In this document: positions 18,638 to 60,680 of the stretch, in pieces | How positions within the stretch are numbered: position 1 is the stretch's first letter | How the letters are laid out: the number at the start of each line of letters is the position of its first letter | From: Hyaloraphidium curvatum SAG 235-1 | Taxonomy: Eukaryota; Fungi; Monoblepharomycota | NCBI GenBank assembly: GCA_025558095.1 | Contig: JAIVFI010000003.1 | Span: forward strand, 806,001-870,000 | Direction: 5' to 3' | Length of the DNA stretch: 64,000 nucleotides | The notes under the pieces: model-generated | Database searches by the model: none | What the model was told of the DNA's origin: nothing | The model's input: only the letters and a program-made list of their open reading frames with translations | Translations under genes and position numbers: made by a program

Positions 18638-21600
18638 ATGGAAACTGCCGCGGAGAACGATGCGTCGCTTGACGAAGCCCCGAGCCTGGGTCCGGACGCG
18701 TCTGTGGCGGACACGCACGATTCCGGCGACGGACACGAGCATAACGCGGCGGCCTTCTTCGAGGAGGCAGATGAGGCCGAAGGCCTTATTCGCGGTCTGG
18801 TAGAGAAGCTGCGCGAAGGCTCTGGTCCGCGAGCGGGACCGGACGCGTATTGTCGCGTCGACCGGGACGCGGCCGCCGAAAGCTCCGAGAACCCCTGGTG
18901 CCGGACAACGCCCGAGGAGGAAGCGGCCTGCGTCCGAATCAAGCGCATCGTAAGCATCTTGGTACCGGGTCTATGTCTTGGAATTACATGCTGACTTGCC
19001 GGGTCGCCAGTTCTTGAAGTATCAGGAGCAGCCCCACCTCCTGGATCCGTTCCTCAGCCGAATGATAACGCCAACCGTCACGTGCCTCCGCGATGTTATC
19101 TTGGAAGCCTATGAAATGGACGTTTCCAACTCGGACTCGGGGGAGGTCTCTGGATGGCCCCAGATGACGGCGCTCGTCGAGAATGCTCGGGTGCACCAAC
19201 TGCTCGAGGTTCTCTACGGCATTTGTTCCGTTCGTGGCAGCAAGACTACAGGTGGGCTCTGGAAGGCACGTTCTCGTCCTGGCGGCGACTAATGGGTGCC
19301 AGTGCGCCTCTTCACCAACTCGCCGGCGGAGCTGACGCCGCTCCTTGCGTTTCTATCGCTGATACCCCGGCCTTCGGTCGACTATCGACCCTGGGCCAGC
19401 CGTTTCGTCGTCTTGCTCTGGCTCAGCCTGGTCGTCATGGTCCCGTTTGACCTGCGAACGATCGATTCGTCTGCCGCGCTGACCGTTGAGGGAGATGAAG
19501 GCAGGCCTGGGCTCCTCCGCCAGATCATAGAGAGCTGCAAGAACATGTTTGCCCAGGCCACGGGCAAGGATGGGGAAGCCGCGGGGATCTTGCTTGCGCG
19601 ACTGCTAGGCAGGAGCGACGCTCTGGAGGACGACGAACTCAACGCTTTCCTCTCGTGGGCGGCGCGAGACGTTTTCGGCCCGAACCATGAACCCGATACG
19701 GCAAATGTGCATTTGGTGAGTGCCGTTCTTCGGTCTCGCGCCTTGTGTGACCGTTTTTGGCAGGCCAAGAACACACTCTACGCCCTGTGCCTCCTCCTCA
19801 AATACTCTCTCCGATCCCACCTTCTTCCTTGTCTGGATGCGCTATCGTCCGTATTGTTCACCATGGTCCCGAACGAAGAGGAAACGACTGGATCCTCCAA
19901 GACCGGCGGTGCGCTGCGGACCCAGGTTCTTCAGAAACTCCTAGTCAAGTACGCAGGCCGACTGGGCGAACTCTTGATGCCGCCGCGGAACAGAGATCTT
20001 CCGAGATCAGGCATCACGGCTCTGCAGGACAATCTTCGCGGCAACTCGCAAAGCACCTGCAGAGAAGGCGCTCGACCGGATCCCCATGCCGCTGACAACG
20101 ATGGAGATGAATCGGACGTCCCAGAAGCCATGGAACCGCTGCTGTCTTTCCTGCTCTCGGAGCTATCCGCACCCTCTTCGGCGGTACGGTGGGTTGCCGC
20201 CAAGGCTCTGAGCCGTATTTGCAGCCGGCTGCCAAGGGCTTTTGCGGCCGAAGTGGTGGAGGCCGCGATCGGCGGTTTTTCCGAGAATGTGCTGCCGAAT
20301 GGAGCTTCTCCAGACGCCGCCGATCTGTCTCAATGCTCGGACGCTACTTGGCATGGCACCTTGCTCCTGCTCGCTGCATTGATCCGGGCGCACGCGCTCT
20401 CTCGCCCTCTGATCTCGGCCTGCGTGCCGTGGGTGCTGCGTGCACTGACTTTTGACCACAAAAGGGGCTCCCAGATTATGGGAATCGGCGTCAGGGACGC
20501 AGCATGCTACGTGCTATGGGCGCTTGCGCGGTCGAATCCGGGCGACATTGAACGTTTGGATACGCAGAGCATTGGGCGGCACCTAGTGTGCACCGCCATG
20601 TTCGATCGCGAAGTGAACGTACGCCGAGCTGCGAGCGCAGCCTTCCAAGAGGGAGTTGGGCGTTTTCGAGACGACCAGCGGTATTCGAACGGCATCGATG
20701 TCTTGCGGGCGCTCGACTTTTGGACAATTGGCAACGTTCGCAAATGCTACAGAACAGTTGCCGTTGCGGTCGCAGCTCATGAGGCTTACCTTCCCGCTAT
20801 TCTGGCCCACTTGACAAAGCACTGCATCGGGCACTGGGACATCCAACTGCGCATTCTTGCTAGCTTGGCTTTGGAGGGACTCGCCGAGACGAGCCTTGCA
20901 CCGGTGATTGACTATTCATGGACGATGCTAATCGATCGCACCAAGGACCTCGACAGTGCGAAAGTGCACGGCGCGGTGCTCGCCGTTGCGGAGCTGTGTC
21001 TCGCCGCAGGAAAGAGTGCCTCACCTGCTGGAGCTGAAAAGCTGGATTTACTCGAATCTTGCCGCGCAACGACCATTGTTTCGCAGGCGGCAACGATCCT
21101 CGGCGGCGCTCGCATGGCGATCCTGGAGCAGGCGACGCCGACTTCCGACATGCTCCTCGCAGCATACGTTCGCCTGGTTGAATGTCTATCGCTTTCCCGT
21201 GCATCCCTTGATGGCAATGGCGTTGCCGCTGCCTTTTGCATACTGGAACTCGCTCTCTCGCGCAAACTCGAATCGCTACAGCGCAGCGCAGCTCGGGCGT
21301 ATGGAGCACTCGTGTATCTGGTTCCGGAAACCCTGGATCGCACCCGCGTGGATGAGCTCCTTCGCGGCGTTGTGCCAACAGAGGATGCGGCTGGTCTGAG
21401 TTTCTTCCGTCGTCGCGGTTGCGCGATGGTTCTGGGTCAACTGCCGTCTGCGCATGTGTTGGTATCCGCGGTAGCGATATCCCGCTCGCTCAGACTCGGA
21501 ATGCAAAAGGCCCCGTCCAAGCGAGGAAGCCGCACCGTCTACATCAGGAGCACTGTCACCGGCGAGGCAGAAGCAAAGTGCGAATGTGTTGCTTCGCTGG

Positions 21601-22868
21601 TTCGGACCTGCGTGGTTGTTCTCGAAGCCACGTTTGCCGGAGGCGCACGACCCGAAGACGTAGCTGTGGTTGTCGGCGAGACACTTTCCGCATTGACACG
21701 CGGGATGCTCGACTACTCGGTGGATTCCCGTGGAGATGTCGGCTCATGGGTCCGGGAGGCGTCCATGAGAGGCTTTGGGACCTTGCTGCCTGCTTTGCTC
21801 CTCGTACACTCCCAGGCCCCCATCAGCAGCTTTGAGGACTACAAGGTGACGGACATCTTTGGAGGTATTCTCCAACAAAGTGTGGAGAAGATCGACCGCG
21901 TGCGCACTTGTGCTGGCTCGACGTTGCGCGCCTTGCTGTCGGAGCGCCGCTGCTTGAATGCCATTGAGGATGCCGAGGCGCTGAAGGATGTCCTTCTCGC
22001 GGAACCTGGCGTGCGGTGGAACTACGCTTCCGATGTCTTCCCTCGGCTAATGCCGCTTCTCCACCTACGCCCATACCGGGGTTCCATCCTGCGGGGCATC
22101 GTAACCAGCATCGGTGGGATGACGGACAGCCTGGTGAAGAGCGCGAGCGCTGGCCTGGTCGGCTTTCTAGAAACTCTCGACGTCTTTCAGGACGGTTACG
22201 GAACTGCGGCAGCGGGGGCAACGCTCACAGAGATACTCGCGGATCTGCTTTCCATGATCAGGACATCAGCGACGCTGGAACGCATTGTCATCGCTCTTCT
22301 GCAGACCTACCATGTGCTTCTTTCGTCCGGGCTCTTTCGCAAGATTCCGGCCGTTGTGGCAGATCCGCATCACACCGAAGTCTTGCAGTTTGCGGAACGC
22401 GAAGCCAGCAAATCTCGAGATCCCAAGAAGCTCATGGGCTGCGCCACGGTTGCCATTGGGTTTCTCGGGCTCGTTCCCGTTGGCCGCGGAGTTGGTGCCA
22501 AGGAGCCTGTCGGGCACTGGACGCAGCTGGCGATCGACCTGTGCTTGCGGTTTCTCCTGCATCCCTTTCCTCGAGTTCGAAAGCATGCAGCTGAGCAGTT
22601 GTATCTCGTACTGAGCGCCCGCGATCTTGAGCTCCAGCTTGGCGAGGAGGACGTGGAGATGTTGCTGTCCGACGATGAGACGACCCCGCAGAACGATTCG
22701 GCGAATTCTCAGGGACAGGACCTTGACAGTCGAACGCTGTCGTGCTTTGCGGAAAAGATTGAGCCTTTGCTGCTTGGGACTGATTGGGACTCGGACACGG
22801 ATGTGTTGAGAACGATCGTGGACTGCTCGCTGACCCCGGCGGTCAAGGAGTTCTTGGGTCTGGATTGA
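18638..22868 (+). CDS. TBCD: Tubulin-specific chaperone D (HEAT/ARM repeats), several 5' introns
   Basis: YQEQPHLLDPFL, LLWLSLVVMVPFDL, VRWVAAK, WHGTLLLLA, VRDAACYVLWALAR, FDREVNVRRAASAAFQEGVGR, DYSVDSRGDVGSWVREA, EKIDRVR, HPFPRVR. Confidence 0.95.
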
Positions 22869-45480: not shown

Positions 45481-48094
45481 ATGCGGCCGAGAAGAAGGCG
45501 ACGTCGAAGAGACGCCGGTGTTGGGCACGGCAATGGTCGGTCCCTGCTGGCGGGGCTGGTTGGGCCCGTGTGGACCTTTGCGGCGTTCGCGCTGCTCTCT
45601 CTCTGGACGGCTCTGCCCGCTATGGCGTATCCGTCGCAATTTCCACCTGGATTCTCGGTGTCCGATGTGGTCGGAAACCTGGGGTACGGAGCTTTGCGGC
45701 GTTTTGGAGCCCCTGAAGCTCACTGCTCGACTCGCGTAGGCTCGTCACCGACTTTGCCTTCCTGGACGGCTCCCGGATCCTCGTGGCCAACAAGATGGGC
45801 CAGATATTGCTAGTCAAAGGCAACTACGTGGCGGCCACGCTCTTGGATATCGGGTGGAAGCTCGGGTCCGTCGGTGGAGGTGGGCTTCGCAGGCTTCCTG
45901 TCCTGCTCTTTCTGACCCTTCCCCAGACCGCGGACTCACCGGAGTTACCGTGCATCCTCAGTGGCCGGCGTCGCCGTACATCTATGTGGGCTACGTGCGC
46001 GACGACAATCCGCCCGACTTTACGGGGCGAAAGTACAACGTCCTTTCGCGCTACACGCTCAACGCGGAGGAGTACCTGGACCCGTACTCGGAACGCGTGC
46101 TCCTGGGAGCGTGCAATGCCGGCAAAGTGATGGACTGGTACGGCGACGACTGCATGCCGCAGGACGGAACGACGCACACCATCGACTGGCTCGGTTTCGG
46201 GAAGGACGGGAACCTGTGGGTCTCGGTGGGCGACGGGGAGACGTTCGAGGGCGAATCGTGGGACGAATGGCGCGGGAGGGACTTTGTGGGGCCCATGGAT
46301 CCCAGGTTCCTCGGCGGCAAGATCCTGCGCCTCAACCCGGACACGGGGGAGGGGCTGCCGGACAACCCGTTTTGGAATGGCAACTCCTGGAGCGCAGCGT
46401 CGCGCGTGTGGGCCGTCGGGCTGCGCAATCCGTTCCGGTGCGGATGGGTTCCGGGGACGGACAATGACCTGATGGTGAGTGGGCGCCGCTTCTCGCGATG
46501 GACTCCCGGTGACCCGTTGTTCAAGTGCGGTGAGGTTGGCTGGTTCACGATGGAGTCCATCAAGCGCATTCAGCGCGGCGCAAATCTGGGTTGGCCTTGC
46601 TGGGAAGGCAACACGTATCCGGGGATGATGAACGCCGACTTTCCCGGTTGCCGCAACTTCTACTCGGGTGCGACCTCGTTCCCGGGATTTTGGGACGCCA
46701 ACGTCCCCTTCTCCTACCCGCACAACGGAGCTTCGGCGGCGGCAATCGGCGGCGTGTTCATGGGCGACAAGTATCCCGCCCCTTACCGCAACAGCTTTAT
46801 CTTCGCCGACTTCCCTTCGAGCAAGATATCCGCCCTCGAATGGGACACGTCCAAGCAGCTTGCCGCCGGCTGGGACGACCGCGGCAACAACCCGATCACG
46901 CCGCGCACCATTGCCATCAACGCGGACCAACCGGTCTCTTTCAAAATCGGTCCGGACGGGTTCGTGTGGTACATCGGACACTGCGTTTCGTGCTCGAACC
47001 TCGGCATTATGCGGCGAATCACCTTCGATCCCGCACAGGCCAGTGCCGCGCCGAGCGACGACAAGACCCTGCAGGACCAGGGTCTCCTCGGTCCGATTGC
47101 GGACCGGCCCGATTTGACCCAGAACTCGACGGCTCCGCCGCCCGCACCACCCGCCACGCCCGAGTCGTGCCGGCAGTCGGGAGCCGTCGTCATCCCCGAC
47201 CTGCCCCAAACCTGGGACTCCCAGATGTTTGTCGGCTCCTTCATCAACTCGCGGTACGCCCGCAACGGCGACGGGGGACCCGTGGAGCTCGACGCCTCAG
47301 TCGGTGGCACGCAGCCGAACGACGGCACGCAGCTCACGATCGGCGGCGTTCGTTTTGGGCACGGCATTGGAACGCGCCAGATCTCCGAGATCCACGTCGG
47401 GGTGAACAGCAACTGCTTCCGATTCCGCGCGCAGGTCGGAATCGACGACCAGGATGCCGCGTCGGGCGCTCGCGCCGAGTTCATCGTCAAGCTGGACGGG
47501 AGGGTGTTTTGGAACTCGACGCTCTGGAACTACGGAAGGCCTTTGCGGGCCGGCGATCCGCCCCTGGCTGTGGACATCAAGGGGATCCAGGGCGTTTCAG
47601 ACATTGGTTTGTACGGGTTCCATCCTTGGGATGTGGATCCGTCGACGCCCGGGAGCGCAGTCGACTGGTGAGACCGGTATCGCCGCGTCGGTGGGCTTCC
47701 ATTAATGCCATTCCGCTCCAGGGCCGACGCTCGCATTTTCTGCGGCCCCGATTCCCCCTACATGCCCACGGTCACGATCGCCAACCCCATCCCACGCAAT
47801 AGCTTCCGGGTCAACGACACCGTTGCTTTCTCGGGGTCCGCGATGGACTTCAACCGCAACGCGATTCCGCCCGAGAATCTGCACTGGTACATCAACCTGC
47901 TGCACTGCCAGGGCGCCCTATGCCACACGCACTTCTACCAGAACTTTGCCGGCATCACCAACGGGACGTTCCAGATCGCGGACCACACGCTGGCGGCGGC
48001 GGATCAGTTCATCTACTTTGAGGTGCGCTTGGTTGCCAAGGACGAGTGCGAACGCACCAACCAAGTCAGCCGCTACGTGGTCGTGCAGCTTTGA
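45481..48094 (+). CDS. Secreted PQQ-dependent glucose/sorbosone dehydrogenase (GSDH) + NPCBM + Ig/PKD-like domain, multi-exon
   Basis: DRGLTGVTVHP, THTIDWLGFGKDGNLWVSVGDG, GKILRLNPDTG, GLRNPFR, GANLGWPCWEG; NPCBM GPVELD..LTIGGVRFGHGIG..FRAQVGIDD..WADAR; C-terminal LHWYINLLHC..CHTH. Confidence 0.88.
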
Positions 48095-49163: not shown

Positions 49164-50545
49164 TCACGCCCTGAAAAGCTTCTCAAAGAACTTCCCGAAC
49201 TTTGACCGCCTCAGCGATGCAGACCTGGCCGGCGTAGCCAAGTTCGCAGACATCCTTGACCGCGAAACCTCCGCCGAGTCCCGGGTCGAACCGAGCGTGG
49301 TGACAGAGGCAAAGCTTGCCTCGGACCCGACTCGCGGAACCGCCACAGTCCTCCCGCTTTCGCTGCTCGAGTCGTCATCGTCCTCTTCAATGTCAGCTGC
49401 GAGCTCGCGCAGGTAGAAGGGCAGACGCCGTCCAAGCTCCGCCTCGGCCGCGGTACATGCCCGCTTGGGGTTGGCGGTCACCGAAGGCAGCTTCACGATC
49501 GGCAGCCTCGAGCGCGCCGAGGCGGGGGTCGCAAAGTCGGCGACCCATCCATGGCGCAGCAGGCTCTCCGCGGTAATGCGGCCTTCGTTCGCGGGGTTGA
49601 GGATAGTCCGGAGGAAGTCGTGGCCCAGCTCGCTGAGGCCCTCGACCTCCAGCGACGGCCGGCCTTGGATTTCGAGCTCGAGCTCGAAGGTGTCCTCCGA
49701 TCGGAAAGGAAAGTAGCCAGTCAAGCAACCGAAGGCGAGGACGCCGAGCGCCCAAAGGTCCTGGTGGCCGGAGTGGGCCAGGTAAGGCGTCCTCCGGTTG
49801 ATGAACCGCAGGAGCGAGGGGCTGGCGTAGTTTGTGCAGCCCACCGCCTCGTCGAGAAGGGTGTTGCGGTCGAAGAAGGTGGCCAGGCCCCAGTCGATGA
49901 CGCTGACGTGCCCCGACGTCGCGTCGTAGAAAACGTTGTCGAGCTTGATGTCGCGGTGGAGGACGCCCATGGAGTGGGCGTGTGCCAGGGCAACGAGGAT
50001 GCCCGCGACGATCCTCCTCGTCTCGTCCTCCTCCAAATGTCCGTCTTGCTTGCCGTTGGTGTACGAGAAGAGCTCTTCGCCCGGGGCGACGGCCATTACG
50101 AGGTTCGAGGCCGTCGACGTCCGAACGTAGTCGAGGAGCGGCGGAATAGAATCATGTGCGAGGTGGGTGAGGGCTAGCGCCTCTCGCAAGGAGAAGAAGA
50201 GGTTGCGGTGGTCGTTGGCGGACATCTTGGTCTGCTTCACGACGGCCTGGGAAGGACCTGTCAGCCCCTCGCAAACGCTGGCGCGCATCACGAGGTACCC
50301 ACGATTCTGCCCGTTCGGCCCTTGGCGACGCGGACCTCGGCGAATGCGCCCTCGCCGAGCACCCGGCCGGTCGCCCAGTCCTCCGCGGCGCCGCGGACAA
50401 TGGGCCCGTCAAAGACCTCGTCGGCGGGCATCGGGCGTCCGGGCTTGCTCGCGTTGCGCTCGGCCGCCATCTGCTTCTCTTTCTCGGAGCAGAGCGTGCA
50501 GCTGCTTGCGCGGTACATGGCGATGCTGGGCGTCGACTCCTGCAT
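49164..50545 (-). CDS. Atypical Ser/Thr protein kinase (copy K4), 1 intron (50247-50302)
   Basis: VLGEGAFAEV, AVVK, LREALAL, HRDIKLDN, IDWG, DEAVGCTNYASP, QDLWALG, NEGRITAESLLRHGW. Confidence 0.9.
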
Positions 50546-51001
50546 GTTGCGTTGTGCTGTGGGGCTGCAGTCCCGCTGACGAAAGCTCGCGAAGGGTGCT
50601 TCTCCTCTCAAGACAGTCGGCGCGGAGGAAAGTCGTGCGAAAGGCGACGTGACTTCGCGATGTGATTGTTGGTAAGGGGTGAGGGTGTTGCGGTTTGGTT
50701 TCGAAAAACTCCGGGCAGTTGTGGAGCAGCCGCGGAGCGGGAGCTTGTCGAATGGTCCGGCGCAAAGGGATACTCCGTTCAGCCATGCACACGCTCGGAA
50801 CCTGGAGCAACCAACGAGAATCCAAAATTTGGTGCGTAGAGAGCAAGGTTTTATGGTGCCACAGGGATCTGACGGACCTTGGGGGGGAGTTATGCGTTTT
50901 GCGGACGAGCAGGGGAGGGGGAGGAAGAAAGCCACAGCTGCGCTCAACTGCTTGCCTCCACAACAATCAGATTGATCCGGCTAGCTAGTTGCACTTTCGC
51001 A

Positions 51002-52993
51002 CTAATCTACAATCTTTTTGATCGCCTCTGCCCGCCCCTCCCCCGTCCTCAAGATGCCCGCGACGATCTGCCATATCTCGTCCCCGACACGCACCCCCTC
51101 GACCGCGCCTTCCCCAACCCGTCCCACCAGGAATCCATTGGCGACGTTGGCTACCTTCGCCTTCCGCAGCGCCTCGGCATACGCCTGGACCCTCCGATCC
51201 GTGGCCGGCAGCCCGTCGCACACCAGGGAAGCGTACTCCGCCGCCGTCCACGCTCGCCCGTATGCTACCTTGCCCGAAAACCCGCCAGGTGCCCACTTCT
51301 CCACCCGCTTGCCAAACTCCAGGGGGTCAGCAATGTTGCCGACGACCGCGACCAGCGCCCCCGGCTCGGCATGGTCCTTTAGCCCCCTTACGATCCGCTC
51401 CGTGAGCTCGTCGCCCCGCGGCCCGCCGTCGCCAAACAGCTCCAGCGGCACCGCGCCCTCCGGGTTCGGGATGTACGGCGGGTTGGCGAGCACGGTCGGG
51501 AAGCGCCGGCCGTGCACGGCGTCCCAGAGGTTGCCCTCGAGCGCCTCCGCGCGGTCCTCCAGCGCGTTGAGCAGCGCGTTGAAGCGGCAAAAGCACGCGG
51601 CACGTGGGTTGACGTCCACGCAGGCGACTTCCGTCGCGCCAAGGCGGGCGGCGACGAGGCCCTGCACGCCCGAGCCGGAGCAGAGGTCCACGGTGGGCTT
51701 GCCTGCGAGGCGGGGGGCCAGACCCTCGGCAAGCAGGCCGGCTAGGCCGAGCGAGTCGACGCCGATGAACATGACGGGGTCGAATACGCCAGTGACGGCA
51801 CCGCCCGCCGTGTGCTGGAAGTCCGCGGCGACGTAGAGGGTCGTGCCGGCGACCGAGAGGGGGACGATCTGGATGAGCATCTGCAGCGAGCCGTCGGGGA
51901 GCTCGAGCGCCATGTTCTGGTCGAGGATAAAGTCGACGGTTTCGGCGCCAAGGACGGCTTTGGCGCGGTCCCGCGGCACCGCGGATTGAAGGAGCACCAG
52001 CTTGGCTGCGTCCAGAAGCTTGTCGGCCCCCGGAAGGGGGAGCTCCTTTGAACGGGCAGCGAGCACCGAAGCTGCCTGCGCGCGCCCGTTGGGGTGCGAC
52101 AGGTTCTGTGCCGGGAAACCGACCGCGGTTGCAGGCAGGGAGAGCAGCGAGAGCATGTTGGCGGCCGTGTAGCCGCAGTCCTCGAGCGCCTTGGCCAGCC
52201 GCCGCGTCTGCTCGCCGTACGCGGCCTTCCACCCGCCCGGCGCCTCCTCGTCCTCCTCGAAGTCCCAGAGCGAGCTGCGCATCTTGTTCAGCTTCGGTCG
52301 CCCGTTGGGCAGGCCACGCGCGGTGCACGACTCGCCCTCGCCGACGTCCGTCACGGGCCAGAATACGTTGAACGCCACCGTGTCGGAATCGGGGCGCAGG
52401 TCCACGACCAGGGCCATCTGAAACTGCGCGTCCGCCGGGTCCGGCGCGGGCGCCAGCCTGCTCCCGACCTCGTCCATGATGTAGAAGAGCGATTTGCCGG
52501 CCCCGTCCTTCTGCTGCAGTTCGTAGCTCCCGGTCACGATCCACAACTTGGGCAGGATCTCGTCGATGATCGTTTCCGCTGACTTTCCAGGGCGCTCGGC
52601 CTTGGCCTTGAGCTCTCCCGTCTCCTTGTCCTCCTCGACCACGTACATGCCCTCGTCTTTGATCCCGTCGAGCTCCAGCAGCTCCGCCACGCGATCGCGG
52701 AGGTTCGGGAGCTGTGCCAGCAGGGACGCGGCCTCCTCGGGCCGCTCAAACGTCGCCATGTGGTCGACGAGCCACACGTCGGATCCGGCGGGAATGTCTT
52801 TGGCCGCCATCAGCCCGTAGCGGCATCCTTGTGGCTCGTCGGCGTCGAACGAGAACTGGAATGCCTGGCCGGCGTCGAAGGTGCTAGAAGACACCTTTTG
52901 GAAGAGGCGCTCGAACAGGGTTTCGGGGACGCCCTGGGCGACGAGCTGGTCGCGATGCAGGCCGAGCCATTCCGAATATGCCTGCGAGACCAT
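51002..52993 (-). CDS. Fusion: TTLL12-like N-terminal SET-like region + HemK/MTS-like class I methyltransferase, intronless
   Basis: N-half LHRDQLVAQGVPETLFERLFQKV..FDAG, VWLVDH, YIMDEVGSR, FWPVTDVGEGE; C-half VDLCSGSGVQG, VDVNPRA, GNLW, LANPPYIP, DGGPRG. Confidence 0.8.
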   Translation of the reverse strand: MVSQAYSEWLGLHRDQLVAQGVPETLFERLFQKVSSSTFDAGQAFQFSFDADEPQGCRYGLMAAKDIPAGSDVWLVDHMATFERPEEAASLLAQLPNLRDRVAELLELDGIKDEGMYVVEEDKETGELKAKAERPGKSAETIIDEILPKLWIVTGSYELQQKDGAGKSLFYIMDEVGSRLAPAPDPADAQFQMALVVDLRPDSDTVAFNVFWPVTDVGEGESCTARGLPNGRPKLNKMRSSLWDFEEDEEAPGGWKAAYGEQTRRLAKALEDCGYTAANMLSLLSLPATAVGFPAQNLSHPNGRAQAASVLAARSKELPLPGADKLLDAAKLVLLQSAVPRDRAKAVLGAETVDFILDQNMALELPDGSLQMLIQIVPLSVAGTTLYVAADFQHTAGGAVTGVFDPVMFIGVDSLGLAGLLAEGLAPRLAGKPTVDLCSGSGVQGLVAARLGATEVACVDVNPRAACFCRFNALLNALEDRAEALEGNLWDAVHGRRFPTVLANPPYIPNPEGAVPLELFGDGGPRGDELTERIVRGLKDHAEPGALVAVVGNIADPLEFGKRVEKWAPGGFSGKVAYGRAWTAAEYASLVCDGLPATDRRVQAYAEALRKAKVANVANGFLVGRVGEGAVEGVRVGDEIWQIVAGILRTGEGRAEAIKKIVD

Positions 52994-53145
52994 CGCGACG
53001 TGCGGTTCTACGCCGGATCCGTGCGTTGTTTGATTGATTGACTTGATGGAATGGGCGCGTCCCGCGGCCGTCCCGCCGCCGAGTGTCCCCTTCCCCGACC
53101 GGAACCCCCTGCCAGTGCCGGCGACGCGTCTGATCTGCCGCGGCG

Positions 53146-54964
53146 ATGCAGCTGATCGAGTACAAGCCGCTCGGCGCGGCCGATGGCGCGGGCGACGCGG
53201 CCGACACGGAGAAGGCGGCGCAGCTGATGGGCATCGTCGGCTGCACGGCGGAGGAGGCGGCCAACGCGCTCGCGGCGTGCGGCGGCGACATGGACCGCGC
53301 GGCGGACATGCTGACCTCGGGCGGCCCGCCGCCGTACGCACCGTACGCGCCGTACTCGGCCGCAACGCACTTCGACCCGAAGGACGCGGCCGCGACGCTG
53401 TGGGGCTTCGACGTGGGCTCGGACCTCAAGCGGAAGGAGGCGTCGCGCAAGGCGCTGGAGGAGCTGCGCAACAACGCGCCCGCAGGGCTCGTCACGGGAT
53501 CGCCCGCGTGGCTCAACGCGCTGGTGCTCGCGGTCCACCACGCGTGCCTCGCCGGGCCGGGGGCGCCGCAGGCTGCGCTCTTCGCAAAGGCAGCAAAGGA
53601 CCCGCCGTCCGGCGCGGAATCCGACGCCGTCGACGCCTCCAACCCGAACCTGAAGCCCGCGGACCAGCTCGCGAAGCTCGCACTTGCGCTGCCCCGGACC
53701 AAACGGCGCGCCCTCTCCGCCGCCCCGCTCGCCGAATCGCTGGGCGCCAGCTCGGCCAACCCCAGCATCGCAGACACGTTCACCAAGCTCATCCGTGGCC
53801 TGGATATCCCAGAGCTCGACGCGCTCTTCCGCGTCACCGTGGCCGACGTGACCGCCTTCTTGGTCGACGGCGCGGTGGTCTTCATGGACACCCGGAGCAC
53901 ACAGGCCAACCCGGCGCTGCAGTTTTCCGCCGGCGATGTGATCGGCGCCTCCTGCATTACCGACGCCTTCCGGAAGCGGTTCGGCGCTGGCGCCGGCAAC
54001 GCCAACGGCGAGGCCGACGGCCGCTTCCTCGAGGACGAGGGCGCCGAGCTGCCCGGGCTGCTCCTGGCCACATTAGACACCCAGTTCCGCGGGTTCACTG
54101 AGTCGCGGATAGCGCTGGACCCCTTCTGCAGGTCGCAGGTGATGGAGGGTTCCGGCGCGGCAGCGGCAGACATTGCGCGGCAGCTCGAGGAGGCCGAGGC
54201 AAAGAGGACCAAGCTCAAGCCGCACAGGATCAAGCACATGAGGAGCCTGCTCAATCACCTGAAGGCGGTGCAGGAGAAAGACTCGATTCCGCCGCTGGAA
54301 CGGCTTATTTCGTGGCTCGAGACCTCGGACGCTGGTGGGCTTGATGAGGAGCTTGATCGGTTGCCACAGCGATTGATCGGAACTCCGTTTGCCTTGTCCA
54401 CAGAGCTCCAAAGTCGGATTGAGGACCTCAAAGCCCGCCAGCAGAACCTCTTCAACAGCTCCAGGCACATCTATCGGTGAGCAGCCCATCTGTCGCTCAC
54501 ATCCATTCCCTGACGCCTTCGCCAGCCTCTTTGCGGTCTTCACCGACCAACCCTCCCCCAACGTCCTCATCGACCTCCCCGACCGCGGCTGGACCCGCTT
54601 TACCGACGACCTCGCCGTCGAGGAACCCTCCTTCGCCCCCGACAGCGACCGCACCCCCGCCCGTGCGGTCTTCTACGCCCGCTCCTCCCTCGGCGGCACG
54701 ATCGACCTCGACCCGCCGCCGCCGCCCGCGTGGATCGAGCGCTGGGCTGACGCGGACGACGCGCGCTTTTCGAAGCCTCCGGCGGCGGACGTGGAGATGG
54801 CAGAGGCGGAGGCGCCGGCGGCGGCGGTGCCGATACTTGTGGAGGACGAGCCGGAGACGGTGCCGATCGTGATCGACGAGGGGGAGAAGGCGGAGGAGGG
54901 GTCGGACGGGGAGCTGCCGCATCCGAGCACGCTGGCGATGCCGAGGGCGGCGAAGGAGATGTAG
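53146..54964 (+). CDS. UBA-like domain-containing hypothetical protein, 1 intron near 54477-54522
   Basis: AQLMGIVGCTAEEAANALAACGGDMDRAADML (UBA-like); long ORF; second exon with acidic tail. Confidence 0.65.
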
Positions 54965-57405: not shown

Positions 57406-59703
57406 ATGGGTCTCTTCGAGTACTTTTTGGGATCGTCGACGACTTCTTCGCTGGCTCCGGCAAGCGGCACCTTCTGGGAGGCATGCGAGGACGGCGACGT
57501 TCATCGCGTCTCGTCGTTCTTGCGGAAGCCGGACTTTGACCCAAACGCGCCTGACGCCGAGGGTCAAACTGGCTTCATACGGGCATGTCGATCGGGTCGA
57601 AGCAAAGTGGTCGACCTTCTACTCGCGGACACGCGCGTGGATCCGTGCCGCGCCGACGTCGATGGCGCGACCGGGTTCTTGGAAGCGTGCTTAGCTGGAC
57701 AAACCGCGGTGGTCAGAGCCCTGCTCGCGTCAGGCAAAATTGATCCGAACGACACCGATGCCGTGGGCAGGACGGGTCTTATGCTGGCATGCCGGCACCG
57801 AAGGCTCGCCAGCATTTCCGCGCTGCTCGCGGACGGACGCGTGGCCGTGAACGGAACCGGTGATCGCGGTGTAACCGCGCTCTGGGAATCGTGCCGTAAA
57901 GGTCTCGTCAGTGTCGTCCGCTTGCTCCTATCGGACCCGAGAGCGGATAGGAACTTGGGTGACGAGTACGGGCAGACCCCCCTGATGCTGGCTTGCACCC
58001 TTGACGATCCGGCGACTTGCAAGCTGCTGCTCGCGGATCCCGAAGTGGATGTGATTGCAACAGACAACGACGACTGGACGGCTTTGATGTTTGCGTGCAG
58101 GAACAACCGACCGCGGACCGTTGAGATTCTTCTGCGCGACGGACGGATACCTGTCGACGCGGTGGACGACAAAGGCAAATCAGCTTTCGTGCATGCCTGT
58201 GCTGAGGGATTCGACGACGTTGTAGAGCTATTCTGCCGGGAAACGGGCGCCGACATTCTCAACCAAACTGACGTATACGGTGATACCGGCTTGATGAAGG
58301 CCTGCTTTGCCGGCCACGCGGAAGTGGTCGAGCGGCTGCTCAAGCACGACCTCGTGGACGTCAATGTTCAAAACCTGCTCAATAGCGAGACGGCTTTCAC
58401 ATACGCGTGCGCAAAGAGCGACGTGGCCGTTATCAAGCTTCTTGTCTCATGCGCGAGGGTTGACCTCTCGCTTCGTAACAAGGATGGGGAAACCGGGTTC
58501 GATCTTTGCAACTGGACTGCGAAACAGGTCGTTCAGAAGGCGATTGTCGATCGGGAACGGATCGAACGATCTAGGAAGCAGGGCGTTCCCGTCAAGCTTG
58601 AGACTGACACGGGAGCAAACAAGGAGGGTCTGGATGAGAAGTCCGAAGCCTTGCTTTCGAAGCTGCGCGTCAAGGCGGGGGATGTCAAGTACGACGATAC
58701 CACGATGATTGCCCACGGTGGATTCGGCAAGGTGTACCGTGGCACCCTGCGCAAGGTGACCAAAGTGGCCGTCAAGGTGCTTTTTGCCAGCGCCAATGAC
58801 CCCAAAGGCATCGAAATGTTCCGCAACGAGGTGGCCGTCTGGGGTGGTCTCACGCAACGCAACATCCTGCCCCTTCTTGCCTACTGCGAATCGCCTCCGA
58901 TGATGATCTCGGAGTTTGTGAGCGACGGCGACATGCGCAGCAAGCTTGAAAGCATGGGATGGAACCAGGACAAGGGGATCGAGTACCTTGCGGGCGTCGC
59001 CGCCGGGATGGCCTTCCTCCACTCCTTCAACGTCCTCCACGGTGACCTCAAGTGCGCGAACGTAATGATCGACCGAGACGTCCCCAAGATCACCGATTTT
59101 GGCTTGGCCAAGCTCCGCGAACACATTACCAGCTCATCCTCGGCAGCCGCGGTCGGCAGCGCGGAGCCCGCGGGCACGGCCGGCTTCATGTCGCCTGAGT
59201 ACTGCGAGACCGGCAAGCTGCGTCCACCGGTGGACGTGTTTGCGTTTGCGATGCAGTGCTACGAAGTGGTCAGCCGTGGCGACTACCCGTTTCGGGCCCC
59301 GAGCCGCCAGATCATAATGCTTTGGGTCATGGATGGGAAGCGGCCCAGCCGGCCATACGACTCGACGGACAGGATGTGGAGCTTGATGAAATGGGCATGG
59401 TCCCACGAGCCCAAGGACAGGCCGACGTTCGAGCAGATCCAGGACGAGATGGCGCGCTGGGCTGCGGGCGGCGGATCCGCGCCTTCGGGATGGAAAGAGG
59501 GGCAGCCGAGCATGTTGTCATACTCGGGGTCCCTGGTCGGGACGGCCGACGGGGGCGCACCGGATGACAGCCGATCGTCGGGCACGCTGAACGAGCCGGA
59601 TCCCGAGGCGGCCCCAGCGCAGGCAGGATCGTATTCGACGCTCGTCGAGCCAGCCCAGAATGGGGTGCGGATGTCGGATTCGAGCCCCATAGTGACCACG
59701 TAG
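57406..59703 (+). CDS. Ankyrin-repeat tyrosine-kinase-like (TKL) protein kinase, intronless
   Basis: About 10 ankyrin repeats (G.T.LM.AC..G...VV.LLL); IAHGGFGKVYRG, VAVK, HGDLKCANV, TDFGL, GTAGFMSPE, DVFAF, RPTF. Confidence 0.93.
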   Translation: MGLFEYFLGSSTTSSLAPASGTFWEACEDGDVHRVSSFLRKPDFDPNAPDAEGQTGFIRACRSGRSKVVDLLLADTRVDPCRADVDGATGFLEACLAGQTAVVRALLASGKIDPNDTDAVGRTGLMLACRHRRLASISALLADGRVAVNGTGDRGVTALWESCRKGLVSVVRLLLSDPRADRNLGDEYGQTPLMLACTLDDPATCKLLLADPEVDVIATDNDDWTALMFACRNNRPRTVEILLRDGRIPVDAVDDKGKSAFVHACAEGFDDVVELFCRETGADILNQTDVYGDTGLMKACFAGHAEVVERLLKHDLVDVNVQNLLNSETAFTYACAKSDVAVIKLLVSCARVDLSLRNKDGETGFDLCNWTAKQVVQKAIVDRERIERSRKQGVPVKLETDTGANKEGLDEKSEALLSKLRVKAGDVKYDDTTMIAHGGFGKVYRGTLRKVTKVAVKVLFASANDPKGIEMFRNEVAVWGGLTQRNILPLLAYCESPPMMISEFVSDGDMRSKLESMGWNQDKGIEYLAGVAAGMAFLHSFNVLHGDLKCANVMIDRDVPKITDFGLAKLREHITSSSSAAAVGSAEPAGTAGFMSPEYCETGKLRPPVDVFAFAMQCYEVVSRGDYPFRAPSRQIIMLWVMDGKRPSRPYDSTDRMWSLMKWAWSHEPKDRPTFEQIQDEMARWAAGGGSAPSGWKEGQPSMLSYSGSLVGTADGGAPDDSRSSGTLNEPDPEAAPAQAGSYSTLVEPAQNGVRMSDSSPIVTT

Positions 59704-59800
59704 CATGCGGATGTATACCTGAATAAGGACCACGTGCATTCGCCTCGTTCGCTCAGAGTGTGCACAAAAGCCTCGATGTCCAATGCCAGGCCAAGTGTTG

Positions 59801-60680
59801 GCTCGAGCTCGAAGGTCTCCTCCGATCGGAACGGGAAGTAGCCGGTCAAGCAACCGAACGCGAGGACGCCGAGCGCCCAAAGAACCTGGTGGCCGGAGTG
59901 GGCCAGGTAAGGCGTCCTCCGGTTGATGAACCGCAGGAGCGAGGGGCTGGCGTAGTTTGTGCAGCCCACCGCCTCGTCGAGAAGGGTGTTGCGGTCGAAG
60001 AAGGTGGCCAGGCCCCAGTCGATGACGCTGACGTGCCCCGACGTCGCGTCGTAGAAGACGTTGTCGAGCTTGATGTCGCGGTGGAGGACGCCCATGCCGT
60101 GCGCGTGGGCAAGGGCAACGAGGATGCCGGCGACGATCCTCCTCGTCTCGTCCTCCTCCAAATGTCCTTCCTGCTTGCCGTTGGTGTACGAGAAGAGCTC
60201 CTCGCGCGGGGCGACGGCCATGACGAGGTTCGAGGCCATCGGGCTCCGAACAAAGTCGAGGAGGGGAGGAATCGAATCATGTGCGGGGAGGTGGGTGAGG
60301 GCTAGCGCCTCTCGCAGGGAGAAGAGGAGGGTGCGGTGGTCGTTGGCAGACATCTTGGTCTGCTTCACGACGGCCTGGAAAGGACCTGTCAGACCCCTGG
60401 CAGACGCTGGCGCGCATCACGAGGTACCACGATTCTGCCCGTTCGGATGCCCTTGGCAATGAGTACTCTGGCGAACGCGCCCTCGCCGAGCACCCGGCCG
60501 GTCGCCCAGTCGTCGGCCGCGCCGTGAAGGACGGGCCCGTCGAAGACCTCGTCGGCGGGCATCGGGCGCCCGGGCTTGCTCGCGATGCGCTTGGCTGCCA
60601 TCTGCTTCTCTTTCTCGGAGCAGAGCGTGCAGCTGCTTGCGCAGTACATGGCGATGCTGGCTGGGTGTCGCCTCCTCCAT
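59801..60680 (-). pseudogene. Truncated, decaying duplicate of kinase K4 (copy K5)
   Basis: Near-identical to 49680-50545 including the intron; 4-nt insertion after the first ATG, subdomain IX Asp to Val (QVLWALG), homology ends after FRSEETFELE so subdomain XI is missing. Confidence 0.8.

Follow-up and report, generated by a model that had tools for sequence, protein, structure and literature searches.

A TTLL12-type SET-like domain joined to a predicted AerE-like methyltransferase in the fungus Hyaloraphidium curvatum and in other fungi and algae

What becomes of the SET-like domain of TTLL12 when the ATP-grasp TTL domain that normally follows it is missing and a methyltransferase stands in its place? 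This question is raised by a gene of Hyaloraphidium curvatum SAG 235-1 (Fungi; Monoblepharomycota), which lies within a 64,000-nucleotide stretch of contig JAIVFI010000003.1 (assembly GCA_025558095.1, forward-strand positions 806,001 to 870,000), referred to here as the window and numbered from its first letter. A first-pass annotation of the window, made from the letters alone, had described one intronless open reading frame (ORF) in which a TTLL12-type region runs into a class I S-adenosylmethionine (SAM) methyltransferase, with no stop or splice signal at the junction. Our analysis confirms that this fused ORF, on the minus strand, is real. It encodes 663 amino acids (P0001) in a stop-free frame, and every motif quoted in the first-pass annotation is present in the translation. 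A contig of 2496 nt from run X1, probably RNA, spans positions 50889-53035 with no differing letters and no gaps, and includes the whole ORF. X1 contigs skip GT..AG or CT..AC stretches at four places nearby, which fits RNA. One transcript is thus supported, not proven, because this is a single run, its RNA status is the tool's guess (the listed runs are not on record as RNA), and the contigs do not give the strand.

The N-terminal half is of the TTLL12 type. The Pfam family SET_TTL (PF25556) matches the query with an E-value of 1.3e-11 (45 bits, cut-off 25.6), and five true TTLL12 proteins compared with the whole window by tblastn gave matches only at 52984..52265 (E 1.5e-18 to 2.5e-12). A profile of 16 fusion N-terminal halves aligned with TTLL12 of Chanos in hhalign at 99.6% probability (E 2e-23); the 189 aligned columns stop at residue 225 of TTLL12. 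Searching directly with query residues 1-240 returned four matches, all fusion proteins; the 16-row profile returned 13, five of which are true TTLL12 proteins carrying both PF25556 and PF03133 (E 2e-31 to 4e-22). The homology to the five TTLL12 proteins is end to end over the N-terminal ~225 residues, at 23-28% identity, and covers a SET-like fold with an i-SET insert. In contrast, the ATP-grasp TTL domain, which is the tubulin-binding part of TTLL12, is absent, as first reported: the TTL family PF03133 is not among the five Pfam families listed for the query at E<=1, and the TTL halves of the five TTLL12 proteins have no tblastn match anywhere in the window.

As modelled, the N-terminal half has a SET fold. 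Folded alone from a 26-row alignment that included the TTLL12 rows, it reached a predicted local distance difference test score (pLDDT) of 93.9. The closest structures are SmyD1 (Z 9.7), SET8 (9.6) and Set7 (9.5), which are tied, with identities of 10-12%; the best overlay aligns 156 residues with a root-mean-square deviation (r.m.s.d.) of 3.9. The 50 best rows of this search are SET/PR-domain proteins or complexes containing one, a few of which we take to be such from general knowledge. Foldseek places SET8 first (E 2.7e-5), and the ESM Atlas returns generic SET clusters (0.91-0.92), which serve as a lead only.

The residues expected of an active SET enzyme are missing. A histidine after the DExG motif and an RD[FY] motif are both present in five of five TTLL12 proteins, and in a sixth (L015), whereas none of the 21 fusion proteins has them; in P0106 the DExG pattern caught an earlier DEVG, and the correct site was read by hand. 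The query reads RLAPAP and CTARGL where active SET enzymes have NHS and DY, to which we take the TTLL12 histidine and RD[FY] to correspond. In active SET lysine methyltransferases, NHS is the SAM-binding motif and DY contains the terminal tyrosine. We predict from these substitutions that the SET domain of the fusion protein is catalytically inactive. The SET-like domain of TTLL12 itself is described as lacking histone methyltransferase activity, its SET asparagine being missing (PMC3520985; here and below, papers are cited for those portions of their text that were available). Nine positions of the N-terminal half (P23, G42, D77, H78, R101, D174, E175, G177 and W212) are invariant in 16 of 16 sequences, suggesting a retained function, of which binding would be the simplest. 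The TTLL12 homology stops at about residue 225 and the overlay with the methyltransferase AerE, described below, starts at residue 258; the junction between them contains neither a stop nor a skipped stretch. In a tree of 16 fusion and five TTLL12 N-terminal halves the two groups are split by a long branch (support 100/99), but the tree cannot root the domain, because four of the five TTLL12 proteins are from named animals.

The C-terminal half is a class I methyltransferase with its motifs intact: DLCSGSG, VDVNPRA (at residue 459) and NPPY. Pfam detects MTS (PF05175) in it with E 4.5e-9, and although the full-length model has a pLDDT of only 76.5, the C-terminal half is mostly above 90. When the model was searched against structures (48,161 chains aligned), AerE came first, overlaying on residues 258-636 with Z 31.9, an r.m.s.d. 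of 3.2 and 17% identity over 350 of 373 residues. GenN followed (Z 28.0 over 300 residues), and then PrmC (Z 16.4). Foldseek also places AerE and GenN among its first 12 rows (E 4e-15, target template modelling score 0.76-0.79). With the whole protein as query, the ESM Atlas returns bacterial MTS/DUF7059 clusters (0.79-0.80; again a lead only). Prediction of a complex of the N-terminal half, the C-terminal half and SAM, in which alignments were unused, scored 0.00 and is no evidence either way.

The methyltransferase had been assigned to the HemK/MTS type, which holds for the core and not for the closest relative. HemK/PrmC and HemK2 (N6AMT1/Mtq2/KMT9), which are glutamine N5-methyltransferases, share with the query a Rossmann core with GxG and NPPY, but enzymes of the HemK/PrmC type overlay on the core only (Z 15.3-16.4), the N-terminal subdomain being different. 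All 15 NCBIfam families listed for the query score below cut-off, including TIGR03534 (PrmC; 46.5 bits, cut-off 199.1), TIGR00536 (41.5 and 115.5) and TIGR00537 (HemK2/MTQ2; 46.2 and 87), so neither PrmC nor HemK2 is an orthologue of the C-terminal half. The prokaryote-like extension noted in the first pass can be equated with the helical N-terminal subdomain of AerE, since the AerE overlay spans the whole C-terminal half. This subdomain resembles DUF7059 (PF23186), which is above cut-off in the homologue P0005 (31.9 bits, cut-off 27), weak in P0026 and P0062, and not listed for the query in the Pfam scan. At the other end, the fusion family stops after C-terminal helices containing W641 (invariant in 23 of 23 family rows), about 100 residues short of the end of the ~500-residue bacterial-type relatives. 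These bacterial proteins, of the architecture DUF7059-MTS(-DUF7782), are 23-31% identical to the query in the C-terminal half (alignment A3), with D151, V167 and NPP among the invariant columns; they differ in having an extra C-terminal domain and no SET-like domain, and they are not the sister group of the fusion. By these tests the fusion protein belongs neither with TTLL12 nor with the active SET enzymes, and it is no orthologue of HemK. The coordinates of its parts are collected in Table 1.

Table 1. Parts of the fusion gene, in window coordinates
Feature	Coordinates	Strand	Basis
Whole ORF, intronless (P0001)	51002..52993	-	663 aa, translation stop-free
TTLL12-type SET-like domain with i-SET insert, residues 1-230, predicted catalytically dead	52304..52993	-	PF25556, hhalign, model
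Helix and acidic linker, residues 231-257, fusion junction	52223..52303	-	Between TTLL12 homology and AerE overlay
Helical N-terminal subdomain of methyltransferase (DUF7059-like, AerE/GenN-type), residues 258-400	51794..52222	-	Within AerE overlay
Class I Rossmann methyltransferase core, residues 401-629	51107..51793	-	PF05175, pLDDT mostly >90, fold matches
F409-x-G-x-D413 (AerE Y137 and D141 general base; Tyr to Phe)	51755..51769	-	AerE aligned to family profile
SAM-binding motif I DLCSGSG, residues 436-442	51668..51688	-	Motif position
NPPY, residues 504-507 (AerE N231 and F234)	51473..51484	-	AerE aligned to family profile
C-terminal helices, residues 630-663	51005..51106	-	Model, alignment A3

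In its predicted working the fusion protein is most like AerE, minus one AerE catalytic residue. The family profile aligns AerE residues 136-282 (1.6e-22), placing VYIGPDS on Y-x-G-x-DS and NPPF on NPPY. Among 23 family rows, D436 and G440 of motif I, D413 and N504 are each conserved in all, and Y507, which keeps the aromatic character of AerE F234, in 22. The position of AerE Y137 is variable (Tyr in 14 rows, Phe in three, His in three, Cys in two, Ser in one). PoyE and AerE are Asn methyltransferases (PMC11285071); AerE methylates the side-chain amides of D-Asn, and only D-Asn, within a peptide, and its variants Y137F, D141A, D141N, N231A and F234A are nearly inactive (PMC9060474). NPPY is described as a glutamine-binding motif (PMC8904536). 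The likeness to AerE and PoyE (PDB 7RC2-7RC6) thus covers the whole length of the C-terminal half and the equivalents of D141, N231 and the aromatic residue at 234, whereas the query differs in having Phe for Y137, in its extra SET-like domain, and in being eukaryotic. No proteusin precursor or epimerase was recognised by Pfam among 26 other ORFs of the window, a scan that did not extend to short or intron-split ORFs.

The first-pass annotation had regarded the chimera as novel, but it is not unique to this genome. A whole-length search recovered eight of 7993 scored candidates: this gene, six proteins of the same architecture and one bacterial-type methyltransferase. A library of representatives clustered at 50% identity, searched with the C-terminal half only, gave 6313 matches at E<=0.001, and 15 of the best 150 carry the N-terminal half according to a hidden Markov model that was built from eight proteins which it also scored, three of the 15 positives having helped to build it. 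Pfam provides an independent check: PF25556 is above cut-off in 14 of the 18 fusion proteins scanned, just below it in P0033 and without a match in P0007, P0070 and P0112. The family comprises at least 21 distinct proteins (P0179 and P0180 included), among them members from Polychytrium aggregatum (Chytridiomycota), Gonapodya sp. JEL0774 (Monoblepharomycota), Tribonema minus (Xanthophyceae) and Nannochloropsis/Microchloropsis (Eustigmatophyceae; the Nannochloropsis protein is EWM28597.1). The same architecture is therefore found in two fungal phyla and two ochrophyte classes. A metagenome scan added 17 loci, many of them near-copies, of which 16 encode the fusion and one TTLL12. There were no relatives among 17 pattern matches in viral contigs and none among 179 in prokaryote genomes, the latter scanned with P0031 and not with the N-terminal half.

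On a tree of the methyltransferase all 20 fusion rows fall on one branch, with a support of 95 in the Shimodaira-Hasegawa approximate likelihood-ratio test (SH-aLRT). Its 46 rows, hand-chosen from 154, are 20 fusion proteins, 15 long non-fusion proteins and 11 bacterial-type proteins (P0180 was left out). The query pairs with Gonapodya (support 92), which points to a monoblepharid-like fungus as the host. Long non-fusion proteins with different N-termini, rather than the short bacterial-type rows, lie nearest outside the fusion branch. The two halves diverge in step, their pairwise identities giving a Mantel r of 0.74 that none of 2000 permutations reached. A single origin is likely and gives the simplest reading: the fusion would either be older than the divergence of fungi and stramenopiles or have arisen across it, with later loss in most lineages or passage between eukaryotes. 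A recent transfer of the methyltransferase from a bacterium to a fungus, for which a test by separate phylogenies had been suggested, was rejected as the simplest reading: the G+C content at third codon positions is alike in the two halves (0.87 and 0.86), and the fusion is shared with stramenopiles.

In nine further long, eukaryote-looking proteins (P0058, P0078, P0103, P0109, P0110, P0119, P0134, P0036 and P0092) this methyltransferase follows N-terminal regions of other kinds, for which no Pfam match was found among the families listed. Of the relatives outside the fusion family they are the nearest.

A subfamily of bacterial relatives is informative about chemistry. A GTDB search with its alignment found 275 relatives, and the best 80 of the 275 were taken. 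Of these 80 loci, 68 encode the methyltransferase as a fusion with a carbamoyltransferase and three have the two as separate ORFs; Tyr and NPPF are kept in 75. The fusion pattern fits methylation of a carbamoyl amide nitrogen, a reaction named in the title of PDB 9L4Q (Asc-Orf2). This subfamily bears on chemistry only, because it was hand-chosen and is not the sister group of the eukaryotic fusion. The fused carbamoyltransferase and AerE-type methyltransferase is about 1270 residues long (L022:2781-6557, L024:2682-6554 and 66 more of L018-L097), comes from many cyanobacteria and also from proteobacteria and planctomycetes, and often adjoins signalling genes. Very often it ends in a conserved tail, TKTTPTC[LIV]S[AS]YL, which could be a built-in substrate peptide. 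In two Streptomyces loci (L018:5001-10805 and L019:5001-10797) the methyltransferase stands alone, and after it come two conserved ORFs, of ~700 and 588 residues and on its strand, which presumably resemble B12-dependent radical SAM proteins.

What, then, does the fusion protein methylate? Our preferred answer, held with rather less than even confidence and argued from the likeness to AerE, is the side-chain amide of Asn or Gln in a protein that is docked by the dead SET-like domain. SAM would bind at motif I, and D413 would deprotonate the side-chain amide of an Asn or Gln on a cytosolic protein; stabilisation of the amidate would fall to N504 and Y507, aided by a monovalent cation as in the AerE proposal, and the methyl group would pass to the amide nitrogen. 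The TTLL12-derived domain would bind a partner rather than catalyse, and would select the substrate protein; a binding role is suggested by its lost SET residues and by the joint conservation of the two halves. The fold search agrees with an amide acceptor in that PrmC, HemK, HEMK2 and Asc-Orf2 are among the top matches, being NPPY or carbamoyl enzymes that methylate amide nitrogens (entry titles; PMC8904536).

Several points weigh against this proposal. The anatomy, both folds, the residue conservation and the family are established by the analysis, but the chemistry, the substrate and the docking role of the N-terminal half are inferred. To our knowledge, no D-Asn peptide substrate has been described in eukaryotes. 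The query and the two proteins closest to it carry Phe in place of Y137, and because Y137F nearly kills AerE, the chemistry of AerE cannot be transferred unchanged. By sequence, GenN, a sugar-amine methyltransferase, outscores AerE (1.3e-35 and 1.6e-22), so the AerE/GenN fold also serves small molecules, and NPPY enzymes can act on lysine and nucleotides (PMC8904536). The support for the fusion clade comes from a quick LG+G4 tree without bootstrap, and the corresponding group in a 154-row FastTree, which includes five fragments, has a support of only 80. Finally, the two halves of any single gene should diverge in step; the correlation indicates no more than their staying together.

An alternative is an amine acceptor, a lysine or N-terminus on, for example, the translation factor eEF1A, again with the pseudo-SET domain docking the protein. 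Amines need less activation than amides, the query lacks the Tyr by which AerE activates its Asp, and GenN methylates an amine with the same fold. TTLL12 co-purifies and co-precipitates with EEF1A1 (PMC3520985), and HEMK2, an NPPY enzyme, methylates lysine too (PMC8904536). We nevertheless consider an amine acceptor unlikely: the Asp matching the general base of AerE is present in 23 of 23 rows, whereas the HMMER alignment of amine-methylating GenN has a gap at Y-x-G-x-D and no Pro-Pro at NPPY, and the eukaryotic lysine methyltransferases of this class are low in the fold search (METTL21C, Z 13.5; METTL21A, 13.1; FAM86A, 12.9). Moreover, the EEF1A1 binding was not mapped to a domain of TTLL12 in the available text of PMC3520985. 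The likeness to GenN (gentamicin 3''-N-methyltransferase; PDB 5TYQ, 5U4T and others), which has the same two-subdomain fold and is the best PDB match by sequence, speaks for an N-methyltransferase of small molecules (a sugar amine, a carbamoyl group or a peptide metabolite), in which the SET-like domain would be structural or localising. The carbamoyltransferase fusions in 68 of the best 80 loci of the bacterial subfamily and the match to the carbamoyl N-methyltransferase Asc-Orf2 (Z 15.4) point the same way. However, no biosynthetic cluster is seen around the gene among the ORFs scanned, its neighbours being a kinase, an alpha/beta hydrolase, a UBA protein and an ankyrin kinase, and the 17 metagenome loci share no neighbour with it. 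The retention of the SET fold, a peptide-binding fold, across fungi and algae also fits a protein partner better, and we regard a small-molecule substrate as decidedly unlikely.

Targeting of the methyltransferase to tubulin or histones by the TTLL12 module had been proposed at the outset, and would let one chain do what TTLL12 promotes indirectly. Loss of TTLL12 reduces arginine methylation of tubulin (PMC10883266), TTLL12 levels alter H4K20me3, and full-length TTLL12 co-precipitates H3 and HP1gamma, the domain not being mapped (PMC3520985). Many TTLL12 residues are kept in the N-terminal half, and its best Foldseek match is SET8, an H4K20 enzyme. Against this, TTLL12 residues 1-260 fused to glutathione S-transferase (GST) showed no tubulin binding above GST and no effect on tubulin methylation in the experiments available from PMC10883266, in which the TTL domain was required. 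Tubulin targeting is therefore doubtful, because the domain that TTLL12 needs for binding tubulin is missing from the fusion; histones may still be targets. SET8 is a generic SET match, because it is tied with SmyD1 and Set7 (Z 9.5-9.7), and the long, fully supported branch (100/99) parts the fusion from the TTLL12 N-terminal halves; on balance we find tubulin or histone targeting improbable. Most improbable of all is a dual enzyme, in which the SET-like half is active too, or a class I half acting on RNA. The N-terminal half does form a complete SET fold with invariant D77-H78 and D174-E175-x-G177, and the RNA methyltransferases TrmM, RsmC and RlmG, which contain [DN]PP[YF], appear at Z 14-16. 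Yet the His and RD[FY], kept even by TTLL12, are gone from all 21 fusion proteins, and the RNA enzymes cover only 175-220 residues, compared with 350 for AerE. An amide of a docked protein remains the acceptor that we favour.

In the fungi and algae that have the fusion, the TTLL12 SET-like domain has been kept without TTL and is attached to a methyltransferase whose SAM-binding and NPPY motifs are intact. The SET-like domain of TTLL12 is reported to have no histone methyltransferase activity (PMC3520985) and no tubulin binding alone (PMC10883266), within the parts of these papers already cited. Its role becomes testable through the fusion, since methylation would mark the partner to which the domain docks. 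Should the chemistry be AerE-like, the family would provide a eukaryotic writer of Asn/Gln amide methylation outside the HemK families; a small-molecule enzyme would be less important. A bolder version, which we consider rather unlikely, makes this protein the founding member of an ancient eukaryotic family, retained in scattered lineages, that would put N-methyl-asparagine into a cytosolic protein by means of a kind of enzyme hitherto known from the making of peptide toxins in bacteria. The SET-like domain would then be a portable reader with which TTLL12 and the fusion protein grip partners of one kind, and the substrate of the fusion protein would show what the N-terminal domain of TTLL12 binds in animals. 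Literature searches, whose coverage leaves out most subscription journals, found no earlier description of the fusion among the papers listed, in agreement with the first-pass annotation, nothing on DUF7059, and nothing on asparagine methylation with tubulin or on ansacarbamitocin. What is new is the recognition of the family and of its AerE-type active site, since public proteins already show the pairing of domains in their Pfam annotation.

Some further observations concern the ends of the gene. The X1 contig begins 42 nt upstream of the ATG at 52993, and positions 53075-53518, which belong to an in-frame extension from a TTG, are without cover. The resulting 787-residue reading was rejected because the homologues P0003-P0006 share the Met1 start. 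The public gene model (P0002, 585 residues) starts at Met79 and is likely truncated; it lacks the first 78 residues (52760-52993, minus strand), a third of the N-terminal domain, which are conserved in the homologues and covered by the RNA-like contig. At the other end, 113 nt past the stop, a GT..AG stretch of 58 nt that includes a branch-like site, CTGAC, is missing from the fusion-gene contig (50832-50889, plus strand). It reads opposite to both the fusion gene and the downstream kinase gene, an indication that a spliced transcript, antisense or divergent, has been merged into the contig.

The neighbours of the fusion gene are unrelated housekeeping and signalling genes. Apparent synteny with L002, L009, L010 and L013 was rejected when L009 was re-aligned, the matches being low-complexity matches in shadow frames. 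A gene for tubulin folding cofactor D (19437-22868, plus strand) lies 28 kb from the fusion gene, which we treat as chance. Two near-identical protein kinase ORFs (49164-50291 and 59283-60368, both minus strand) are about 10 kb apart; the second diverges C-terminally and lies partly opposite the end of the ankyrin-kinase ORF, which runs on the other strand. The ORF at 45854-47671 (plus strand) joins a glucose/sorbosone dehydrogenase to an NPCBM carbohydrate-binding domain, a pairing that is more usual in bacteria.

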